Origin: Azospirillum brasilense
GTDB lineage: Bacteria > Pseudomonadota > Alphaproteobacteria > Rickettsiales > UBA3002
Length of the DNA: 64,000 bases
Assembly (NCBI GenBank): GCA_003241645.1
Contig: QFOX01000004.1
Location: forward strand, 183 to 64,182
Direction: 5' to 3'
Positions 1 through 58,372 of this stretch are shown in pieces. Position 1 is the stretch's first letter. Every line of letters starts with the position of its first letter. The notes under the pieces are model-generated. The model was not told the DNA's origin. It saw nothing but the letters and a program-made list of their open reading frames with translations, and searched no databases. A program made the translations under genes and the position numbers.

Positions 1-1298
1 GCCACTTCCGGTGCTTCGCCCTGCGCATTCGCGTAGTAACGGCCCATGATGCCCTGAAGCTCAGGGAATTCACCCACCATGCCGGAGGTTAAGTCGGCTT
101 TGCAGAGATGCGCTGCACGACGCACGAAGCGTTTGTCATCCTGAGCAACGCGAAGGATCTCAGCGGATGCTTCGCTACGCTCAGCATGACAAAGCATATC
201 GACCAGCTGGACTGCCAGCTGTTCAATGCGCTGCACTTTCTCGTTCATCATGCCGACCTTGGCGTGGAACACCACGTCGGCCAGTTTTTCGCCCCAGGCT
301 TCCAGCCGGGTGCTCTTGTCCTGCTCCCAGTAGAATGCGCCGTCGCTCAGGCGGGCACGCAGCACGCGGCTGTTCCCGGCGATCACGGCTTTGCCCTCGT
401 CGGCGGTGATCATGTTCGCCACCGCGATGAACTGGTTGGTCAGCGTGCCGCTGGCGTCGCGCAGCGCGAAGTAGCGCTGGTGCACTTTCATTTCCGAAAT
501 CAGCACTTCCGGCGGCAGGCTCAGGAAGCTGGCATCGAACGTGCCGAGCAGCGGCACGGGCCATTCGACGAGGCCGGTCACTTCATCCAGCAGGGCCGGG
601 TCGTTCACCACTTCGAGATTGTGGTGCTTGGCCAGTTGGGTGATCTCGGTGGCGATCCAGTCACGGCGGGTCGCGGCATTCACCACCACATGCGCGGCTT
701 TGAGTTTGTCTTCGTATTCTTCCGCATGGCGCAGGTGGATAGCGCCGGGTGCAAGGAAACGGTGGCCATAGGTGGTGGCCGCCGCCGTCAGGTGGCCGAA
801 TTGCACGGGCACGATGGCGTCATCCAGCAGGCAGGTGATGGCGTGCAGCGGGCGCACCCAGCGCATGGGGCGGGCTTTGCTGTCGCCCCATTGCATGCTT
901 TTCGGCCAGACGAACGCGGTAAGCGCCGCTTCGGCCACTTCTTTGGCCAGCTCGGCCATGGCGCGGCCCTTCTTTTCGATGCGCGCGAAATAGTACCCGT
1001 CGCGCTGCTCGCACTGTTCGGCGGTGAGGCCCACCGCGTTCAGGAAGCCCTGCATGGCCTGCGCGGGCGCACCCACTTTGGGGCCTTTGCGTTCTTCCGA
1101 AATATCGGGCTGCACCAGCGGCAGGCCGAACAGCTGGATGGCCAGATGGCGCGGCGATACGAAGGTCCTGACCTCGCCATGGGCGATGCCTGCTTTTTCA
1201 AATCCGGCGGCAATGAGGCGCTGCAACTGTTCGCACGCGCCGCGCTGCATGCGCGAGGGGATTTCTTCGGAGAAGAGTTCGAGAAGCAGGGTAGCCAT
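1..1298 (-). CDS. glyS: Glycyl-tRNA synthetase beta subunit, N-terminal part (3' end runs off the window start)
   Basis: Not in the ORF track because there is no stop in the window. Reverse translation from the ATG at 1298-1296 reads MATLLLELFSEEIPSRMQRGACEQLQRL..., the canonical GlyS N-terminus. The + ORF 108..1505 is its antisense shadow. Confidence 0.9.
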   Translation of the reverse strand, partial: MATLLLELFSEEIPSRMQRGACEQLQRLIAAGFEKAGIAHGEVRTFVSPRHLAIQLFGLPLVQPDISEERKGPKVGAPAQAMQGFLNAVGLTAEQCEQRDGYYFARIEKKGRAMAELAKEVAEAALTAFVWPKSMQWGDSKARPMRWVRPLHAITCLLDDAIVPVQFGHLTAAATTYGHRFLAPGAIHLRHAEEYEDKLKAAHVVVNAATRRDWIATEITQLAKHHNLEVVNDPALLDEVTGLVEWPVPLLGTFDASFLSLPPEVLISEMKVHQRYFALRDASGTLTNQFIAVANMITADEGKAVIAGNSRVLRARLSDGAFYWEQDKSTRLEAWGEKLADVVFHAKVGMMNEKVQRIEQLAVQLVDMLCHAERSEASAEILRVAQDDKRFVRRAAHLCKADLTSGMVGEFPELQGIMGRYYANAQGEAPEV

Positions 1299-1309
1299 GA
1301 TTATACCTC

Positions 1310-1412
1310 GTCATTCCAGCGGAAGCTGGAATCCATGAATGGGTGTGCGCCTGCGGCGCAGTGCGCATGGATGCCGGATCGGCACGCGCTGCGCGCATTG
1401 GTCCGGCATGAC
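1310..1412. repeat. 103-bp compound hairpin repeat (GTCATYCC...ATGAC family, subtype D)
   Basis: gtcattccagcggaagctggaatccat hairpin, then gcgcagtgcgc, then ggatgccggatcggcacgcgctgcgcgcattggtccggcatgac. Its reverse complement aligns along its whole length with 54522..54628. Confidence 0.85.
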
Positions 1413-3022: not shown

Positions 3023-4021
3023 CTACGCCGCCTCCTGCGTTTGGCTTTGCACCCACGCTTCGCAGCAGGCTTTCGCCATGGCGCGCACGCGGCCGATATA
3101 GGCGGCGCGCTCGGTCACGCCGATAACGCCGCGCGCATCCAGCAGGTTGAAACGGTGCGATGCCTTGATGCACTGGTCGTAGGCGGGCAGGGCGAGGGTC
3201 GCGCTGCGCGCATTGCTGTGCGCCAGCAGGCGTTTGCATTCGGCCTCGGCGGCATTGAACTGCTCGAACAGCTGCGCGGTGTCAGCCGCCTCGAGGTTGT
3301 AGGCGCTGAACTCGACCTCGTTCTGCTTGAACACGTCGCCGTAGGTGAAGTGAGTGGGGAGTGGGGAGTGGGGAGTGGTGGGTGTTGATGCACTGCCTTG
3401 CGTAGCGCCATCGCTGCGCGAGCCGCTGGCGGCGGGGGGGAGCGAAGCGTGGGGGGTAAGGCCCCCCTCAGGTACAAAATTCCACCCCAGGTCGTACACA
3501 TTCTCAACACCCTGAATGTACATGGCGAGGCGCTCAAGCCCATAGGTCAGCTCGCCGGAGATGGGGCTGCATTCGATGCCGCCGACCTGCTGGAAGTAGG
3601 TGAACTGGGTGACTTCCATGCCGTCGCACCAGACTTCCCAGCCAAGGCCCCAGGCGCCCAGCGTGGGGCTTTCCCAGTCGTCTTCCACGAAGCGGATGTC
3701 GTGCTTTTTGGGGTCGATGCCCAGCTCCACCAGCGAATCGAGGTACAGCTGCTGGATGTTGTCGGGCGAGGGTTTCAGGATCACCTGGAACTGGTAGTAA
3801 TGCTGCAGGCGGTTGGGGTTCTCGCCATAGCGGCCATCTTTCGGGCGGCGCGAAGGCTGCACATAGGCGCAGTTCCACGGCTTGGGGCCCAGCGTGCGCA
3901 GGGTGGTGGCCGGGTGGAACGTGCCTGCCCCCACTTCCATGTCATAGGGTTGCAGGATCACACAGCCCTGACGCGCCCAGTAGTTCTGGAGGGTCAGGAT
4001 AATATCTTGGAACGATTTCAT
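3023..4021 (-). CDS. glyQ: Glycyl-tRNA synthetase alpha subunit carrying an in-frame repeat insertion
   Basis: [42 protein letters not shown]... is the canonical GlyQ. An extra ~40 residues lie between VYDLGWN and FTYGDVF. Confidence 0.95.
3352..3379. repeat. Tandem heptamer (gagtggg)x3 plus one imperfect copy inside glyQ
   Basis: Read directly: gagtggg gagtggg gagtggg gagtggt. It encodes part of [12 protein letters not shown] on the minus strand. Confidence 0.9.
3385..3471 (-). repeat. 87-bp GC-rich palindromic repeat, family A, copy in glyQ
   Basis: The reverse complement ctgaggggggccttaccccccacgcttcgctcccccccgccgccagcggctcgcgcagcgatggcgctacgcaaggcagtgcatcaa matches 13154..13239 at 80 of 87 positions without gaps (hand alignment). 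Confidence 0.9.
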
Positions 4022-10835: not shown

Positions 10836-10984
10836 GTCATCCCGGAACATTTTTCAGGAGAAAAATTTCTCCGGGATCCAGACCTCACGGCGCTCAGCAG
10901 AGCGCCGTCGTCAAAAAAGTCTGCTGACTTTTTTACCGTGGATTCCCCTATGATTTCGCCTGCTGGCGAAATCCGGGGAATGAC
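10836..10984. repeat. 149-bp three-hairpin MITE-like element (family C) between etfB and etfA
   Basis: gtcatcccgg...ccgggatcc hairpin, a central cggcgct/agcgccg hairpin, and gattcccc...ggggaatgac. About 80% identical to 14481..14630. Same architecture as 34136..34283. Confidence 0.85.
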
Positions 10985-12405: not shown

Positions 12406-14160
12406 ATGAACACCGCCCCGGACCGCCTGAAATTAGCCCTCGCGCAGATGAACCCCACCGTGGGCGACCTTGCGGGCAACGCGCTGGCCATTGTGCGCAC
12501 GGCGCAGGAAGCCGCCGCGCATGGCGCGGATCTGGTGCTGTTCCCCGAAATGGCGCTGACCGGCTACCCGCCGGAGGATCTGATTCTGGTGCCGGCCTTC
12601 CGCCAGGCCGCGTGGGACGCGGCGCGCCAGATCGCGAAGGATACGCAATCGCTGCCGTGCGACCTCATCTTCGGCAATTTGTGGGAAGAGGGCGCGGCGA
12701 TTTACAATGCCTCGGTGCTGGCCAGCGGCGGGCGCTTAAGCCTGCTGCGCGCCAAGCACGCGCTGCCGAATTACGGCGTGTTCGACGAAATGCGCGTGTT
12801 CGCCCCCGGCCCGGAGCCGGAAGTGGTGGAGTGGCGCGGCCTGAAATTGGGCCTGCTGATTTGCGAAGAGGTCTGGCAGCCGGGTGCAGGCGTGGCGCTG
12901 GCGCAGGCGGGCGCCGAACTGCTGCTGGTGCAGAATGCCAGCCCCTACCACATTGGCAAGGCCAGTGAACGCAAAGCCGTGGTGGATGCGGTAGTGAAGG
13001 CGACCGGCCTACCGCTGGTGTACCTGAACCTCGTGGGTGGGCAGGACGAGCTGGTGTTCGATGGCCGCTCCTACGCCGTCGGGGCCGACGGGGCCGATGC
13101 CGCGCGGCTGCCCGCCTTCTGCGAAAGCCTTGCGGTGCTGGAATGGAAGAAAACTGAGGGGGGCCTTGCCCCCCACGCCTCGCTTCCCCCCGCCGCTAGC
13201 GGCTCGCGCAGCGATGGCGCTACGCAAGGGAGCGCATCACGTTGGGTATGTGTTTCTGGCCCTATGGAGCCCGTGCGCGGCGACGAAGAAACGATCTACC
13301 ACGCGCTGGTGTTGGGCCTGCGCGATTACGTGCGCAAGAATGGCTTCCCCGGGGTGGTGCTGGGGCTTTCCGGCGGCATTGATTCGGCGTTGTCGGCCGC
13401 CATCGCGGTGGATGCGCTAGGCGCGGATAAGGTGCTCGGCCTGCGGCTGCCCAGCCCCTACAGCTCGGCCGATAGTCTGGAAGACGCACAGGCGCTGGTG
13501 GAATTGCTGGGCATGCAGACCCATACCGTATCCATTGAGCCGGGCATGCAGGCGGCCAACGCTGCGCTTGCGCCGTTATTCGCCGGTCGCGCCCCCGACA
13601 CGACCGAGGAGAATATCCAAGCCCGCCTGCGCGGCCTGACGCTGATGGCGATGAGCAACAAGTTCGGCCACATGCTGCTGACCACGGGCAATAAGTCTGA
13701 GATGTCGGTGGGCTATGCCACGCTGTATGGCGATATGGCGGGTGGTTTTTCGGTGCTGAAGGACGTGTACAAAACCACCGTGACCCGGCTTTCCAGCTGG
13801 CGCAATGGCTTTGCCGACATCGCGCGGCTGGGGCTGCTGGGGCCTGCGGGCCCGGTCATGCCGGAGCGCAGCATCACCAAGCCGCCAAGTGCCGAGCTGC
13901 GGCCCGGCCAGTTGGATCAGGATTCGTTGCCGCCCTATGCCGTGCTGGATACGGTGCTGCGCGGGTTGATCGAGCGGCAGCTTTCCGTGCATGAGTTGAT
14001 CGCCGAGGGCATGGAGCCCGCCGTGGTGGAAAAGGTCGCCAAGCTGGTGTGGGCGGCGGAATATAAACGCCGCCAAAGCGCGCCGGGCGTGAAGATCACG
14101 CCCATGGCGTTCGGCCGCGACCGCCGTTGGCCCATCACCAACCGCTGGAAATTCCAGTAG
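12406..14160 (+). CDS. nadE: Glutamine-dependent NAD+ synthetase carrying an in-frame repeat insertion
   Basis: N-terminal CN-hydrolase domain (LKLALAQMNPTVGDLAGN). C-terminal PP-loop LGLSGGIDSAL. The insertion [27 protein letters not shown] sits in the inter-domain linker. Confidence 0.95.
   Translation: MNTAPDRLKLALAQMNPTVGDLAGNALAIVRTAQEAAAHGADLVLFPEMALTGYPPEDLILVPAFRQAAWDAARQIAKDTQSLPCDLIFGNLWEEGAAIYNASVLASGGRLSLLRAKHALPNYGVFDEMRVFAPGPEPEVVEWRGLKLGLLICEEVWQPGAGVALAQAGAELLLVQNASPYHIGKASERKAVVDAVVKATGLPLVYLNLVGGQDELVFDGRSYAVGADGADAARLPAFCESLAVLEWKKTEGGLAPHASLPPAASGSRSDGATQGSASRWVCVSGPMEPVRGDEETIYHALVLGLRDYVRKNGFPGVVLGLSGGIDSALSAAIAVDALGADKVLGLRLPSPYSSADSLEDAQALVELLGMQTHTVSIEPGMQAANAALAPLFAGRAPDTTEENIQARLRGLTLMAMSNKFGHMLLTTGNKSEMSVGYATLYGDMAGGFSVLKDVYKTTVTRLSSWRNGFADIARLGLLGPAGPVMPERSITKPPSAELRPGQLDQDSLPPYAVLDTVLRGLIERQLSVHELIAEGMEPAVVEKVAKLVWAAEYKRRQSAPGVKITPMAFGRDRRWPITNRWKFQ
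13154..13239 (+). repeat. GC-rich palindromic repeat, family A, copy in nadE
   Basis: ctgaggggggccttgccccccacgcctcgcttccccccgccgctagcggctcgcgcagcgatggcgctacgcaagggagcgcatca. Same frame and orientation relative to its host gene as the glyQ copy. Confidence 0.9.
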
Positions 14161-14480: not shown

Positions 14481-14630
14481 GTCATCCTCGAAAAATTTTC
14501 AGCAGAAAATTTCTTCGGGGATCCAGACCACACGATGGCCAGTAGGCCATCGTCGTCAAAAAATATCTTCTGACATTTTTTGCGTGGATTCCCCTATGAT
14601 TTTGCCTGCTGGCAAAATCCGGGGAATGAC
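14481..14630. repeat. 150-bp three-hairpin MITE-like element (family C) upstream of gltX
   Basis: gtcatcctcg...cggggatcc, a central cgatggcc/ggccatcg hairpin (compensatory changes versus the etfBA copy), and gattcccc...ggggaatgac. Confidence 0.85.
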
Positions 14631-14659: not shown

Positions 14660-16006
14660 ATGTCGCAAGAGCAAGTATTCGTTCGTTTCGCCCCCAGCCC
14701 CACCGGCTGGCTGCATGTGGGCAACGTGCGCACCGCCCTCATGAACTGGCTGTTCGCCCGCGCGGCGGGTGGCCGCTTCCTGCTGCGTATCGACGATACG
14801 GACACCGTGCGCAGCAAGGCCGAATACGAAGCGGGCCTGAAGACCGACCTGCAATGGCTGGGGCTGGAATGGGACGCGTTCGAGAAGCAATCGCTGCGCT
14901 TTGACCGCTACGAGCTGGCCAAGCAAAAACTCATCGCCGATGGGCGGCTCTACCCGTGCTATGAAACGGCCGAAGAGATCGACATTAAACGCAAAATGCT
15001 GGCCGGTCGCGGCCTGCCGCCGATCTATGACCGCGCCGCGCTGAACGATACGGCCGAGATGCGCGCTGAATACGAAGCGCAGGGCCGCACGCCGCACTGG
15101 CGCTTCAAGCTGGACCATAAACCCATCGTGTGGGACGACATGGTGCGTGGCCGCACCGAGTTCGACGGCGCGAAACTTTCCGACCCCGTGCTGATCCGCG
15201 AAGATGGCGGCGTGCTGTTCACCTTTGCCACCTCGGTGGATGATGGGGAAATGGGCATCACCCACATTATTCGTGGGGAGGACCATGTGTCCAACAGCGC
15301 CATCCAGATCCAGATCATGGAAGCGCTCGGCTTTGCCGCCCCCATCATGGGCCACATGGCGCTGCTGAAAATGAAGGAAGGCAAAATTTCCAAACGCGAA
15401 GGCGGCGGCGATATCAAGTCGCTGCGCGAAGAGGGCATCCTGCCGCTGGCACTGGTGAGCTACCTCGCCAAGATCGGCACGTCCGACGCGATCGATCTCG
15501 CGCCGAGCCTTGAGCAACTGGGCGCGGAATTCGCCATTACCAAGCTGGGCCGCGCCATGGCGAATTACGACCCCGCCGAGCTGGAACGCCTGAACCAGAA
15601 ATTGCTGCACCAGATGGATTTTGCGGCAGTAGAGACGTTACTTGCAGCGCGCAGCGCTGGACATATTACACCCGAATTTTGGACGATGATTCGTGGTAAC
15701 CTGACAAGCCTCGATGAGACAAAAGAATGGTGGACGCTGGTGCAAGAGCCTATCACCCCAACCATCAACGATAAGGAATTCACCGACGTTGCAGCCACCT
15801 TGCTGCCCAGCGGCGAATGGGGCGCAGGCAGCTGGGACGAGTTCGTGGCTGCGGTGAAAGAGAAGACCGGCCGCAAAGGCAAAGAGCTGTTCATGCCGCT
15901 GCGCCTGGCGCTGACCGGCATGGAGCACGGCCCGGAAATTAAGGTGCTGTTCGCCCTGCTGGGTCGTGAGCGCGCGCAAAAACGCCTGATGGGCGAGGCG
16001 GCATAA
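14660..16006 (+). CDS. gltX: Glutamyl-tRNA synthetase
   Basis: VRFAPSPTGWLHVGNVRTAL (HIGH-type) and KISKREGG (KMSKS-type). Confidence 0.95.
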   Translation: MSQEQVFVRFAPSPTGWLHVGNVRTALMNWLFARAAGGRFLLRIDDTDTVRSKAEYEAGLKTDLQWLGLEWDAFEKQSLRFDRYELAKQKLIADGRLYPCYETAEEIDIKRKMLAGRGLPPIYDRAALNDTAEMRAEYEAQGRTPHWRFKLDHKPIVWDDMVRGRTEFDGAKLSDPVLIREDGGVLFTFATSVDDGEMGITHIIRGEDHVSNSAIQIQIMEALGFAAPIMGHMALLKMKEGKISKREGGGDIKSLREEGILPLALVSYLAKIGTSDAIDLAPSLEQLGAEFAITKLGRAMANYDPAELERLNQKLLHQMDFAAVETLLAARSAGHITPEFWTMIRGNLTSLDETKEWWTLVQEPITPTINDKEFTDVAATLLPSGEWGAGSWDEFVAAVKEKTGRKGKELFMPLRLALTGMEHGPEIKVLFALLGRERAQKRLMGEAA

Positions 16007-16011
16007 TGCCC

Positions 16012-16361
16012 GTCATTCCAGCGAAAGCTGGAATCCATGAGGCATGATGCAGCACTCCTACCTGTATATCATGGCAAGCAAGCTGCATGGTACACTCTAC
16101 ATTGGGGTGACCGCCGATTTGGTAAAGCGCGTGTATGAGCATCGTACTGGGATGGTTGCAGGGTTTACCAAGAAATACCACGTGCACATGCTTGTATATT
16201 ATGAGATGCACGAAGATATAACGCAGGCCATCCAGCGCGAAACGCAAATGAAGGCGTGGAAGCGAAGGTGGAAAATTGAACTTATTGAGAAGCAGAATCC
16301 AGCATGGGAAGACCTGTATGCGTCCATTCTCTGATTGGATTCCAGCTTTCGCTGGAATGAC
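16012..16361 (+). mobile_element. Candidate minimal mobile unit: GIY-YIG gene bracketed by perfect 26-bp inverted hairpin repeats
   Basis: 16012-16037 gtcattccagcgaaagctggaatcca and 16336-16361 tggattccagctttcgctggaatgac are exact reverse complements. The unit fills the gltX-cysS gap and its interior is AT-richer. Confidence 0.5.
16044..16334 (+). CDS. GIY-YIG nuclease family protein (YhbQ/UPF0213-like, nuclease domain only)
   Basis: SYLYIMASKLHGTLYIGVTADLVKRVYEHRTG...QRETQMKAWKRRWKIELIE. GIY/YIG, Arg and Glu positions are as in the family. Confidence 0.85.
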   Translation: MMQHSYLYIMASKLHGTLYIGVTADLVKRVYEHRTGMVAGFTKKYHVHMLVYYEMHEDITQAIQRETQMKAWKRRWKIELIEKQNPAWEDLYASIL

Positions 16362-16367
16362 GGTACG

Positions 16368-17750
16368 ATGATCAAACTTTCCAACACCCTGACGCGCGGC
16401 GTGGAGCCGTTTGCCCCACTCGACCCTGCGCATGTAAAAATGTATGTGTGCGGACCGACCGTGTATGCGCGCCCGCATATCGGCAATGCGCGCTCGGTGG
16501 TGGTGTATGACGTGCTGGCGCGGCTGCTGCGCCACGACTTCCCGAAGCTCACCTTCGTGCGCAATATTACGGATGTGGACGATAAAATTAACGCGGCTGC
16601 CATCGAGCGCGGCATCTCCATTCAGGCGCTGACCGACGAGGTGACCGCGCAGTTCCACGCCGATATGGGTGCATTGAATTGCGCCAAGCCGGACGTGGAG
16701 CCCAAAGCCACCGAACACATCGCGCAGATGATCGCGATGATCGAAACGCTCATCGTGCGCGGCCATGCCTATGCAGCGCAGGGCCATGTGCTGTTCGACG
16801 TGCAGAGCAACCCGGATTATGGCGTGCTCAGCCGCCGCAACGCGCGGGACATGATCGCCGGTGCGCGCGTGGAAGTGGCGCCTTACAAAAAATACCCCGG
16901 CGATTTCGTGCTGTGGAAACCCGCCAGCGAGAAAGACGACGCGAGCAGCAAGTTCGACTCGCCATGGGGCGTGGGCCGCCCCGGCTGGCACATCGAATGC
17001 TCTGCCATGAGCGCCACGCATTTGGGCCATGATTTCGACATCCATGGCGGTGGGTCGGACCTGATGTTCCCGCATCATGAGAACGAGATTGCACAAAGCC
17101 GGTGCGCGCATGCGGGCTCGCATTACGCGAAATACTGGGTGCATAACGGCTTTCTTACCGTCAACGGCGAGAAGATGAGCAAGAGCCTCGGCAACTTCAT
17201 CACCGTGCATGATTTGTTGGAGCGCGGCGTGAAGGGCGAGGTGATCCGCTTCGCGCTGCTTTCCACGCGCTACAACGAACCGCTCGATTGGAGCGACAAG
17301 CTGCTCGCCGATGCGGGCAAGGTGATGGATAAGCTCTATCGTAAAACTACCGATGTCATTCCCGCGCAGGCGGGAATCCATGATATAGGCGTGGCAGCGG
17401 AGGCAATCATGGATCCCGGCCTTCGCCGGGATGACGTATCTAAAGAACTTATGGCTGCCTTGCGCGATAACCTGAACACGCCGAAAGCACTGGCCATCCT
17501 GCAAACGCTGGAAGGCGACGAACTGCTGGCTTCAGCCCAGTTCATGGGCCTGCTGCAACAGCCTGCCGACCAATGGTTCCAGGGCGAAGCGGGCGACGAT
17601 GCCGCCGCCATTGAAGCGCAGATCGCCCAACGCAACGCCGCCAAGAAAGCGCGTGACTTCGCCACGGCTGATGCGATCCGCGAGGCGCTGAAGGCGCAGG
17701 GCATCCTGCTCGAAGACGGGCCGCAGGGCACCAGCTGGCGCCGCGCGTAA
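16368..17750 (+). CDS. cysS: Cysteinyl-tRNA synthetase carrying an in-frame repeat insertion
   Basis: MIKLSNTLTRGVEPF..CGPTVYARPHIGNARS (HIGH) and KMSKSLGN. An 81-bp hairpin repeat is translated as VIPAQAGIHDIGVAAEAIMDPGLRRDD. Confidence 0.95.
   Translation: MIKLSNTLTRGVEPFAPLDPAHVKMYVCGPTVYARPHIGNARSVVVYDVLARLLRHDFPKLTFVRNITDVDDKINAAAIERGISIQALTDEVTAQFHADMGALNCAKPDVEPKATEHIAQMIAMIETLIVRGHAYAAQGHVLFDVQSNPDYGVLSRRNARDMIAGARVEVAPYKKYPGDFVLWKPASEKDDASSKFDSPWGVGRPGWHIECSAMSATHLGHDFDIHGGGSDLMFPHHENEIAQSRCAHAGSHYAKYWVHNGFLTVNGEKMSKSLGNFITVHDLLERGVKGEVIRFALLSTRYNEPLDWSDKLLADAGKVMDKLYRKTTDVIPAQAGIHDIGVAAEAIMDPGLRRDDVSKELMAALRDNLNTPKALAILQTLEGDELLASAQFMGLLQQPADQWFQGEAGDDAAAIEAQIAQRNAAKKARDFATADAIREALKAQGILLEDGPQGTSWRRA
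17355..17435 (+). repeat. 81-bp double-hairpin repeat (family D) inside cysS
   Basis: gtcattcccgcgcaggcgggaatccat ... ggatcccggccttcgccgggatgac. Exactly 27 codons. Confidence 0.9.
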
Positions 17751-24708: not shown

Positions 24709-24790
24709 GGCGAGGCCAGTAGGCCGAGCGAGCCATCAGCCCGCGAAGCGGCGCACCATTGGGAGCGCAGGAGCGCGAGCAGGGTGCAGC
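24709..24790. repeat. Family B-related repeat in the rpsD upstream region
   Basis: The core ggccgagcgagccatcagcccgcgaagcggcgc (24722-24754) matches 42782-42814 inside rnpB. Confidence 0.75.
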
Positions 24791-34135: not shown

Positions 34136-34283
34136 GTCATCCCGGTTTGTGAAGCCAGCAGGCGCTACAACACCGGGATCCAATCAAAAATATCAGGAGA
34201 TATTTTTGAGATGAAAAACGCCTCCTGACGTTTTTCATTGGACCCCGGAGTGACTTCGCTGCTGCTGCGTCATCCGGGGTGAC
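34136..34283. repeat. 148-bp three-hairpin MITE-like element (family C) between purQ and purS
   Basis: gtcatcccggtttgtgaagccagcaggcgctacaacaccgggatcc ... cgtcatccggggtgac. Same modular layout and length as 10836..10984. Confidence 0.8.
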
Positions 34284-40000: not shown

Positions 40001-40098
40001 GGGAAGGGGGCGTGCCGCCGCCCTTCGCACCTTCGGTGCTGACCCCCTCGTTTCGCTGCGCTCACGGCTCGCGCAGCTTCGGCGCTACGCAAGGGTTC
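40001..40098 (+). repeat. Family A variant repeat (intergenic)
   Basis: gggaagggggcgtgccgccgcccttcgc...ccccctcgtttcgc...ggctcgcgcagcttcggcgctacgcaaggg. Aligns with 58276..58372 and with the 3' half of the glyQ and nadE copies. Confidence 0.8.
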
Positions 40099-42592: not shown

Positions 42593-42638
42593 GCGAAAGC
42601 GGCGCGAAGCATCGCACAGTATGTGCGATCTGCGGAGC
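42593..42638 (+). repeat. Family B hairpin repeat inside rnpB helix P3
   Basis: gcgaaagcggcgcgaagcatcgcacagtatgtgcgatctgcggagc. The stem is atcgcac/gtgcgat. Confidence 0.85.
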
Positions 42639-42765
42639 AAAAAAATCCAACATCTCCCCGAGGAAAGTCCGGGCTCCACGGAACACGGTGGCGGGTAACG
42701 CCCGCCCGGCGCAAGCCGAGAGACAGTGCCACAGAAACAAACCGCCTTTTTCGCGCGGTACTGGC

Positions 42766-42848
42766 GGCAGCGAGGGCAGCAGCCCGAGCGAGCCATCAGC
42801 CCGCGAAGCGGCGCGAAGCATCGCACAGCATGTGCGATTTGCGGAGCA
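42766..42848 (+). repeat. Family B repeat (long form) inside rnpB helix P12
   Basis: ...gcccgagcgagccatcagcccgcgaagcggcgcgaagcatcgcacagcatgtgcgatttgcggagc. The 3' part matches 42593..42638 and the 5' part matches 24722..24754. Confidence 0.85.
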
Positions 42849-43124
42849 CCAATAAGGTAAGGGTGAAAAGGTGGGGTAAGAGCCCACCGCGCCGCTGGTA
42901 ACAGCGTGTGGCCAGGCAAACCTCACCGGGAGCAAGACCAAATAGGCGTGCAGTGGTTCAATCCACGGGCCGTTCCGGGCCGCACGCGGGTAGGTTGCTT
43001 GAGCCATGCAGCAATGCATGGCCTAGATGAATAGCCATCCATCCCAGCAATGGGGGGACAGAACCCGGCTTACAGGCCATCTGGTGTTAACGCTTTGTTC
43101 ATGCGTGGCTGCTAACCTCGGCCT

Positions 43125-54509: not shown

Positions 54510-54521
54510 TCAGCGACGCAC

Positions 54522-54628
54522 GTCATCCCGGACCAATGCGCGACGCGCATGCCGATCCGGGATCCATGCGAACTGTGCGCAGCACACAAATAGAGTCATT
54601 AGGAGATTCCTGCGTTCGCAGGAATGAC
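54522..54628. repeat. 107-bp compound hairpin repeat (family D) in the ftsW-murG gap
   Basis: gtcatcccggaccaatgcgcgacgcgcatgccgatccgggatccatgcg...gattcctgcgttcgcaggaatgac. It is the inverted counterpart of 1310..1412. Confidence 0.85.
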
Positions 54629-58275: not shown

Positions 58276-58372
58276 TGAAGGGGGCGTGCCGCCGCCCTTC
58301 GCTCGCGAAGGCTCGCTGACCCCCTCGCTTCGCGGCTCGCGCAGCGATGGCGCTACGCAGGCAATGCATCAA
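58276..58372 (+). repeat. Family A variant repeat in the murB-ddl gap
   Basis: tgaagggggcgtgccgccgcccttcgc...ccccctcgcttcgcggctcgcgcagcgatggcgctacgcaggcaatgcatcaa. The 3' 50 nt are near-identical to the glyQ and nadE copies. Confidence 0.85.

Follow-up and report, generated by a model that had tools for sequence, protein, structure and literature searches.

A probable ssn cassette between gltX and cysS, and the varying occupancy of operon junctions among its relatives

The closest described system to the locus reported here is that of the Ssn nucleases. Chenal et al. (Nat Commun 2025) described SsnA, a single-domain GIY-YIG protein of 94 amino acids from CDD family cd10448, whose gene is flanked by the Neisseria Transformation Sequence (NTS), CGTCATTCCCGCGMAVGCGGGAATCYRG, or by the SRM, a degenerate version of it (PMC11893778). 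SsnA binds the motif in single-stranded DNA (ssDNA) only and cuts a few nucleotides upstream of it; double-stranded DNA (dsDNA), RNA, and the complementary strand are not cleaved, RNA is not bound, and any of the substitutions Y6A, Y17A, or E64A inactivates the enzyme (PMC11893778). Three further homologues, one of them from Wolbachia, cut beside their own motifs, making four homologues in all. An SRM lies near the gene in 71% of homologues and on both sides of it in 42%, 81% of genomes with more than 200 SRMs encode an Ssn homologue, and Rickettsia is among the SRM-rich genera (PMC11893778). In N. meningitidis, SsnA lowers the integration of NTS-bearing transforming DNA, meaning that it restricts incoming ssDNA (PMC11893778). 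Here, we describe a unit in an uncultured alphaproteobacterium that closely resembles this arrangement. It lies in a 64,000-nt stretch of contig QFOX01000004.1, referred to below as the window, and consists of a small GIY-YIG nuclease gene bracketed by inverted hairpins between gltX and cysS. This unit is very probably an ssn cassette, i.e., the gene of an Ssn-family enzyme (SsnA-like; cd10448 according to the literature) with its cognate NTS/SRM hairpin on both sides.

The cassette is wedged between the end of the gltX-like open reading frame (ORF) at 16006 and the ATG of cysS at 16368 (Table 1). The repeat finder gives an inverted repeat, CCGTCATTCCAGCGAAAGCTGGAATCCA, with arms of 28 nt at 16010-16037 and 16336-16363 that are 100% complementary and 298 nt apart. 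An earlier description made from the letters alone, the original prediction, had placed a 350-bp unit between the same gltX stop and cysS start, with perfect 26-bp inverted copies around the nuclease gene, an ORF beginning 6 nt past the left 26-nt repeat, and a stop 1 nt short of the right one. The coordinates and both distances agree, and the true arms are two bases longer each. The ORF, 16044-16334 on the plus strand, encodes 96 amino acids if counted from the first ATG; a database protein (P0001) is identical over 95 amino acids and starts at the second ATG, at 16047. The sole domain that Pfam finds is GIY-YIG (residues 5-78, E=1.6e-14), in keeping with the prediction of a nuclease domain and nothing else, and the fold of the protein is not in doubt. 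The predicted AT-richness of the ORF is likewise borne out, with a GC content of 0.478 and a GC content at third codon positions (GC3) of 0.61, versus 0.609 and 0.76 for gltX and cysS. No second copy of ssn was found in the 64-kb window.

To which family of GIY-YIG proteins does the window protein belong? A tblastn search with this protein against the plasmid collection found two 2.17-Mb N. gonorrhoeae records (E=3e-27), which are chromosome records filed as plasmids in PLSDB and which serve as the N. gonorrhoeae reference. The gonococcal ORF has 94 codons counted from an ATT, carries Tyr 6, Tyr 17, and Glu 64, and is flanked by exact NTS copies. Because of its length, these three residues, and the flanking NTS copies, we infer that it is the SsnA orthologue. 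The window protein aligns with it without a gap and to the same C-terminus, with 47 of 90 residues identical (52%) and E=4e-38; the homology criterion applied to SsnA in the published work is E<1e-10 (PMC11893778). Y8, Y19, and E66 of the window protein stand opposite Y6, Y17, and E64 of SsnA, and the spacings of 11 and 58 residues are identical. By comparison, the best matches in PDB are UPF0213 proteins, 1zg2 at E=3e-4 and 1ywl at E=9e-3, and PDB holds no close homologue. The original prediction had called the protein a YhbQ/UPF0213 type, an assignment that gives way to the far closer similarity with the gonococcal orthologue. UPF0213/YhbQ proteins share the superfamily fold and a similar length, whereas their sequence similarity is marginal and they have no known association with hairpin repeats.

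The gonococcal ORF itself (L089, NZ_CP119142.1, 1489-1773) lacks an ATG, GTG, or TTG in frame where the start is expected; the codon at that place is ATT. An ATG close by lies in another frame and leads to a stop. The gene may use a rare start codon or be inactive in that strain.

Other nuclease classes were considered and set aside. GIY-YIG homing endonucleases of the I-TevI type share the catalytic domain and an association with mobile DNA, whereas the window protein ends right after the catalytic domain, without a linker or DNA-binding domain, and scores 16.2 bits with the group I intron endonuclease model TIGR01453 versus a cutoff of 56.05. Their substrates differ as well: that of Ssn is ssDNA beside a hairpin, not an intron-less dsDNA allele. 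An HUH Y1 transposase similar to the TnpA of IS200/IS605 was rejected because GIY-YIG is the only Pfam match. PADLOC models of defence systems gave no match at E<=0.01, the PHROG search gave only a marginal match, and NCBIfam gave nothing informative.

The hairpins themselves are very similar to those of Neisseria. As ssDNA, each flanking arm forms a stem of 8 bp topped by a GAAA loop (z-score of about -3.6 to -3.8). The left arm is made up of an unpaired 5' GTC, the stem ATTCCAGC/GCTGGAAT, the GAAA loop, and a 3' CCA. Two differences separate it from the NTS consensus: a compensatory substitution in the stem (C>A on one side, G>T on the other), by which the window stem has an A-T pair at the place of the C-G pair in Neisseria, and a final T in place of the consensus G. 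When the two copies are screened with the published SRM pattern, the left one matches and the right one misses at the final base only. Copies of the 26-mer with up to 3 mismatches occur 3 times in the window versus 0 times in 100 dinucleotide shuffles, and the more general module GTCATYCC..GGRATYY occurs 11 times versus a mean of 0.02, which excludes a chance origin for both. The strict SRM pattern has 3 sites in the window, versus 0.37 expected and a shuffle maximum of 3. This pattern is too narrow for the local variants, and a structural definition of the hairpin was therefore used; the loosest form of that definition also picks up chance hairpins, and only those with ATCCA-like tails were counted. 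The window modules have an unpaired 5' GTC and a stem starting with ATYCC, and 10 of the 11 have a CCA-like 3' tail, the module at 54604 ending with CTC. Conservation among these modules falls on exactly the published determinants of recognition, which are the GTC on the 5' side, the sequence of the stem, and the C that follows it. An Rfam search of the hairpins matched no family, no T-run follows the hairpins, and a promoter and terminator scan of the plus strand found no terminator-like or promoter-like site.

The association between gene and hairpin extends to the relatives of the window protein. Eighty genomic loci encoding proteins 53-68% identical to it were collected, 78 of which have complete flanks and were used for the counts. 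Their hosts include Omnitrophota, Patescibacteria, Chloroflexi, Planctomycetota, several classes of Proteobacteria, and others. A strict SRM lies within 120 bp of the gene in 48 of the 78, and on both sides in 17. With the structural definition, at least one hairpin lies within 150 bp in 71 of the 78, and the nearest hairpins have the orientation seen in the window (plus upstream, minus downstream) in 41. There are 7.6 hairpins per kb beside the gene and 0.57 per kb at more than 500 bp from it, a 13-fold difference. The exact Neisseria NTS flanks proteins that are 57-66% identical to the window protein (L003, L006, L037, L054, and L061), and the identical 26-mer flanks the closest relatives (L082, L087, L088, and L091). 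The functional link that the original prediction had suspected between nuclease and dispersed hairpins has been demonstrated experimentally for the Ssn family, whose genes are typically flanked by the motif (PMC11893778). Judging from these homologues, the window protein would have Ssn activity on the A-T variant of the stem.

Several points weigh against reading the window unit as a functional equivalent of the Neisseria system. The flanking motifs of N. gonorrhoeae have the opposite orientation, minus upstream and plus downstream, such that they point outward whereas the window copies point inward; the layout is therefore not uniform across the Ssn family. In Neisseria, altering the stem sequence while keeping the structure abolished activity (PMC11893778), which means that the predicted specificity for the A-T stem rests on motif and gene having travelled together. 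Finally, the sole in vivo role shown is that in N. meningitidis (PMC11893778).

Related genomes show that hairpin-bounded units come and go at operon junctions. Relatives of the gltX|cysS junction were found by CysS homology, and the percentages in brackets are CysS identities to the window. The junction holds the ssn cassette in the window and in L091, L082, L087, and L088, whose Ssn proteins are 74-79% identical to the window Ssn and are its nearest matches across the entire protein database. At none of the 80 loci of more distant relatives does the gene adjoin cysS. The original prediction had proposed looking for an empty gltX-cysS junction in relatives, and truly empty ones were found in L083, L085, and L086 (78-81%), where the gltX stop overlaps the cysS start by 4 nt (TTGA or GTGA). 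The closest genome, L081 (88% identical over the full length of CysS, 92% on gap-free columns), holds a hairpin pair of ~95 bp without a gene, with another type of stem (TGTCATTGCGAG...CTCGCAATGACA). In L084 (82%), the junction contains an unrelated insert. This 620-bp insert (1437-2060) has an ORF for a hydrophobic protein of 110 amino acids; a hairpin remnant (CCGTCATCATCCCG) follows the gltX stop, and a stretch of ~30 nt near its right end resembles the 3' end of gltX (CGAGAAGCGGCTGAAGAGCGAGGCTGTAA).

Two further sites in the window show similar polymorphism. The etfB|etfA junction of the window holds a pair without a gene (10836-10984), and that of L090 holds an ssn cassette (2462-2826), a compact one with hairpins a few nucleotides from the start and stop codons; the L090 Ssn is 68% and its EtfB 82% identical to those of the window. 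Occupancy is thus reciprocal, with a pair in the window and a cassette in L090 at etfB|etfA, and a cassette in the window and a pair in L081 at gltX|cysS. The 14481-14630 pair is missing from five relatives (L081, L083, L085, L086, and L087). In the window, this pair splits a conserved stem-loop (AAATCCTCTAACGCTGCG|GCCTTAGAGGATTTTTT) at its loop, just upstream of the gltX start codon. The stem-loop, which may be an attenuator or a terminator of the upstream small ORF, is intact in L081 (about 2640-2660), is kept with small changes in the other four, and matches no Rfam family. At three comparisons of filled and empty sites, there is neither a target-site duplication nor a common target sequence, and the hairpins are bordered on the outside by 0-12 additional nucleotides of unrelated sequence. 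A neighbour-joining tree of CysS does not place the occupied loci in one clade; this tree is given little weight because it is based on a single gene without support values. Presence/absence polymorphism of cassettes and pairs fits mobility, and does not demonstrate that Ssn is its cause.

The history of the gene is harder to read. Ssn proteins are highly identical across phyla and the GC3 of their genes stays lower than that of the hosts, which together suggest that ssn often moves horizontally. Indeed, GC3 is 0.44-0.61 for ssn and 0.64-0.76 for its neighbours in every host examined (the window, L082, L087, and L088). Between these loci, Ssn identity is 74-79%, near that of CysS (about 80%). 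Vertical inheritance and the lack of amelioration of ssn are hard to reconcile. A second cassette with the same hairpins stands beside ssn in L087 (1778-2156) and L088 (689-1064). It encodes a protein of 100-103 amino acids (MKFAYVIYKLTFPNGKIYVG...) that has no Pfam match and no BLASTP similarity to Ssn and that matches PHROG homing-endonuclease families (phrog_314, E=1e-6).

The flanking hairpins belong to a wider population of paired hairpins in the window. Every clear module sits in a convergent pair (plus on the left, minus on the right), and a looser search for missing partners brings the number of pairs to 8, among which that at 16012-16361 is the only one to enclose a gene (Table 1). 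This agrees with the earlier observation that the module begins or ends the composite repeats, in that all clear modules cap convergent pairs. A single 150-bp element accounts for the pairs at 10836 and 14481, whose copies are 77-88% identical. The 1310-1412 pair is probably intergenic, because a minus-strand gene appears to start at about 1298; a plus-strand ORF that runs across this hairpin (108-1505) looks like a shadow ORF. The insert in cysS adds its 27 residues in a linker where seven relatives have nothing, and L081, the closest relative, has another palindromic insert (CCTCCCCCTCGAAGGGGGAGG...) at that position.

Table 1. Positions in the window of the ssn cassette, its neighbouring genes, and the dispersed convergent hairpin pairs.
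Feature	Position	Strand	Basis or remarks
Left NTS/SRM-type hairpin, CCGTCATTCCAGCGAAAGCTGGAATCCA	16010..16037	+	Repeat finder, folding, passes published SRM pattern
GAGG, Shine-Dalgarno-like motif of ssn	16039-16042		
ssn, single-domain GIY-YIG nuclease gene, 96 amino acids (95 from 16047)	16044..16334	+	Pfam, SsnA alignment
Right hairpin, exact reverse complement of the left	16336..16363	-	Motif reads 5'->3' along the minus strand
gltX, glutamyl-tRNA synthetase, left neighbour	14660..16006	+	Pfam tRNA-synt_1c
cysS, cysteinyl-tRNA synthetase, right neighbour	16368..17750	+	Contains the in-frame 81-bp hairpin pair 17355-17435
Compact 56-bp pair, different hairpin variant, GTCATCCTGAGC...GCTCAGCATGAC	135..190		Loose hairpin definition
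Convergent pair without gene	1310..1412		Left module one loop base off the 26-mer that flanks ssn
149-bp convergent pair without gene, etfB/etfA junction	10836..10984		
150-bp convergent pair without gene, upstream of gltX	14481..14630		Same family as 10836-10984
81-bp convergent pair, in frame within cysS	17355..17435		Adds 27 codons (VIPAQAGIHD...GLRRDDV)
Convergent pair without gene	34136..34283		
Convergent pair without gene	54522..54628		Left module related to the right module of 1310-1412 (arms 54521-54578 and 1356-1413)

Other repeats are present in the window as well. A separate family with the core GGCTCGCGCAGCGATGGCGCTACGCA includes an 86-nt inverted pair that is 93% identical (3386-3471 and 13154-13239), with further copies at 40059-40095 and 58301-58363. 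One of these copies (13154-13239) falls within the nadE ORF (12406-14160), where it may represent a further in-frame insertion. The match to bacterial RNase P RNA at 42616-43088 spans 473 nt versus 367 nt for the model. This locus contains 43-nt direct repeats (42597-42639 and 42806-42848, 95% identical) and has a 45-nt repeat in common with 24710-24754, which suggests that a repeat element has inserted into a variable helix of the RNase P RNA gene.

How does the cassette compare with other known systems? To the Ssn/NTS system it is tied by a single-domain GIY-YIG protein of ~95 amino acids with Y, Y, and E in register, by near-identical hairpins on both sides of the gene, and by many further copies of the motif in the genome; it differs in the stem pair and orientation described above and in its host, and its activity is a prediction. 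The REP/RAYT systems, whose enzyme is TnpA_REP, an IS200/IS605-like HUH Y1 protein, have a single-copy gene bracketed by inverted copies of a dispersed hairpin, a likeness of layout only; they also resemble the Ssn arrangement in that the enzyme recognises hairpins in ssDNA and there are no target-site duplications. The original prediction had drawn this parallel, and the resemblance holds, although the Discussion of Chenal et al. had already raised both the NTS-ssnA-NTS layout and its analogy with IS200/IS605 and REP/RAYT (PMC11893778). Its accompanying remark that no repeat-mobilising role is established for the family is still true, though the idea is not new. The two enzymes are unrelated in fold and chemistry, RAYT being an HUH tyrosine transesterase and Ssn a GIY-YIG hydrolase, and Ssn has no known strand transfer and accepts only one strand of each site as a substrate. 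Of the features expected of an insertion sequence or a miniature inverted-repeat transposable element (MITE), namely terminal inverted repeats, a target-site duplication, and a recognised transposase, the cassette has the terminal inverted repeats, and filled and empty sites are present as well; no target-site duplication and no known transposase fold were found. Rickettsia palindromic elements (RPEs), reportedly described by Ogata et al. in 2000, are said to be short palindromes inserted in frame in protein-coding genes. The insertion in cysS is similar; this likeness, one of description, is a lead.

By homology with the characterised enzymes, the cassette would work as follows. A monomeric enzyme would bind the hairpin only in ssDNA, with recognition depending on the sequence of the stem, on the unpaired GTC to its 5' side, and on the C that follows it. 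Using Mg2+ as a cofactor, it would then hydrolyse that strand at a point a few nucleotides to the 5' side of the motif, and the complementary strand of the site would not be a substrate. Given the inverted orientation of the flanking copies, each strand is predicted to be cut once, immediately beyond the cassette. The cellular substrate may be transient ssDNA, such as incoming DNA or replication and recombination intermediates, wherever genomic hairpins are exposed, and cutting at exposed hairpins could shape recombination at the sites that they mark. The turnover of hairpin-bounded segments is compatible with a role for Ssn in moving or exchanging them.

Two explanations would do away with a functional pairing of nuclease and hairpin, and neither fares well. 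An ordinary housekeeping GIY-YIG protein of the YhbQ/UPF0213 type could stand between two repeats by chance, and the common GIY-YIG domain, the similar size, and the weak matches to 1zg2 and 1ywl are what such a protein would show. However, those matches are dwarfed by that to the gonococcal SsnA orthologue (E=3e-4 and 9e-3 versus 4e-38), ssn is absent from gltX|cysS in the closest relatives, and hairpins are enriched 13-fold beside the gene across the 78 relatives. The housekeeping explanation is already contradicted by these tests, and we give it almost no credence. It is also very improbable that the hairpins act primarily at the transcript level, as terminators, mRNA stabilisers, or a regulator of ssn, with the nuclease association being secondary. 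They are mostly intergenic, at operon junctions, and a regulatory link was the first consideration of Chenal et al. (PMC11893778). Yet the hairpins have no T-run and no terminator-like or promoter-like site on the plus strand, they match nothing in Rfam, SsnA does not bind RNA (PMC11893778), and one of the pairs lies within coding sequence.

Two other explanations refine the reading of the unit as an ssn cassette and do not replace it. Ssn may be a trans-acting mobiliser of hairpin repeats, analogous to RAYT, with the cassette as the autonomous element and the gene-less pairs as MITE-like, non-autonomous derivatives. This is a tentative idea that we hold to be possible, if rather doubtful. In its broader form, held just as tentatively, the hairpin-ssn-hairpin cassette would be an autonomous mobile element of an undemonstrated kind, in which a GIY-YIG ssDNA nuclease, together with host repair or replication, causes all hairpin-bounded segments to be gained, lost, and replaced, the gene-less convergent pairs at operon junctions and the RPE-like in-frame insertions among them. 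Ssn would then be a non-HUH functional counterpart of RAYT. The mobiliser is consistent with the convergent arrangement of all clear window modules, which is the same as that around ssn, and with the three states of the exact gltX|cysS site (empty, pair, cassette). The compact cassette of L090 at etfB|etfA, where the window has a pair, the absence of the 14481-14630 pair from five relatives, and the in-frame pair in cysS also speak for it. So do the 81% of SRM-rich genomes that encode Ssn and the insertion sequence/RAYT analogy proposed by the authors themselves; on the other hand, 19% of those genomes have no Ssn homologue (PMC11893778). The complementary strand is not cut, meaning that only one end of a convergent pair is cleavable on each strand, unlike the same-strand ends of IS200/IS605. 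Further points against a mobiliser are the lack of a target-site duplication or common target at the filled and empty sites, with their 0-12 variable extra nucleotides, the stems of most gene-less window pairs, which are unlike the stem that flanks ssn, and the single ssn copy in 64 kb. GIY-YIG enzymes are hydrolytic, and none is known to form a covalent intermediate, transfer strands, or rejoin DNA; cutting alone leaves reinsertion unexplained. Alternatively, the cassette could be a selfish one that spreads by recombination in a homing-like manner, with the hairpins as short homology arms or hotspots and with Ssn cuts stimulating exchange. A cassette or pair would then replace the sequence between two hairpins, or travel between related genomes with the flanking genes. 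Two junctions do alternate between pair and ssn cassette among related genomes, and the sister lineages of the window and L081 hold different hairpin-bounded inserts at the identical position. Likewise, genomes whose CysS proteins share only ~80% identity have the same 26-mer, the low GC3 of ssn in every host argues against long, undisturbed residence, and Ssn is known to affect the recombination of incoming ssDNA (PMC11893778). The non-monophyly of occupied loci would also fit, but the tree behind it is a single-gene, neighbour-joining one without support values. Spread by recombination is nonetheless unlikely: truly empty sites contain no hairpin to recognise, which leaves the first arrival at a site unexplained, and the Neisseria enzyme lowers, rather than raises, the integration of hairpin-bearing DNA (PMC11893778).

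What does the window locus add to the biology of the Ssn family? Earlier work had already covered the family and its motif, the placement of the gene between motif copies, and the parallel with IS200/IS605 and REP/RAYT (PMC11893778). What is new is the comparative evidence that hairpin-bounded units come and go. The junction comparisons in relatives are a modest addition, and they make the question of mobilisation testable in this clade. The locus itself supplies one more Ssn/SRM pair with a slightly different stem, a candidate specificity of modest use for ssDNA-cutting tools. How the hairpins multiply, and whether they do so through Ssn, was left open by the published work (PMC11893778). This clade offers unusually clean natural material for that question, with two junctions that are empty or filled by a pair or a cassette, and with a pair in frame in cysS. 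If Ssn does drive the turnover, this would account for how a very widespread class of bacterial palindromic repeats arose.

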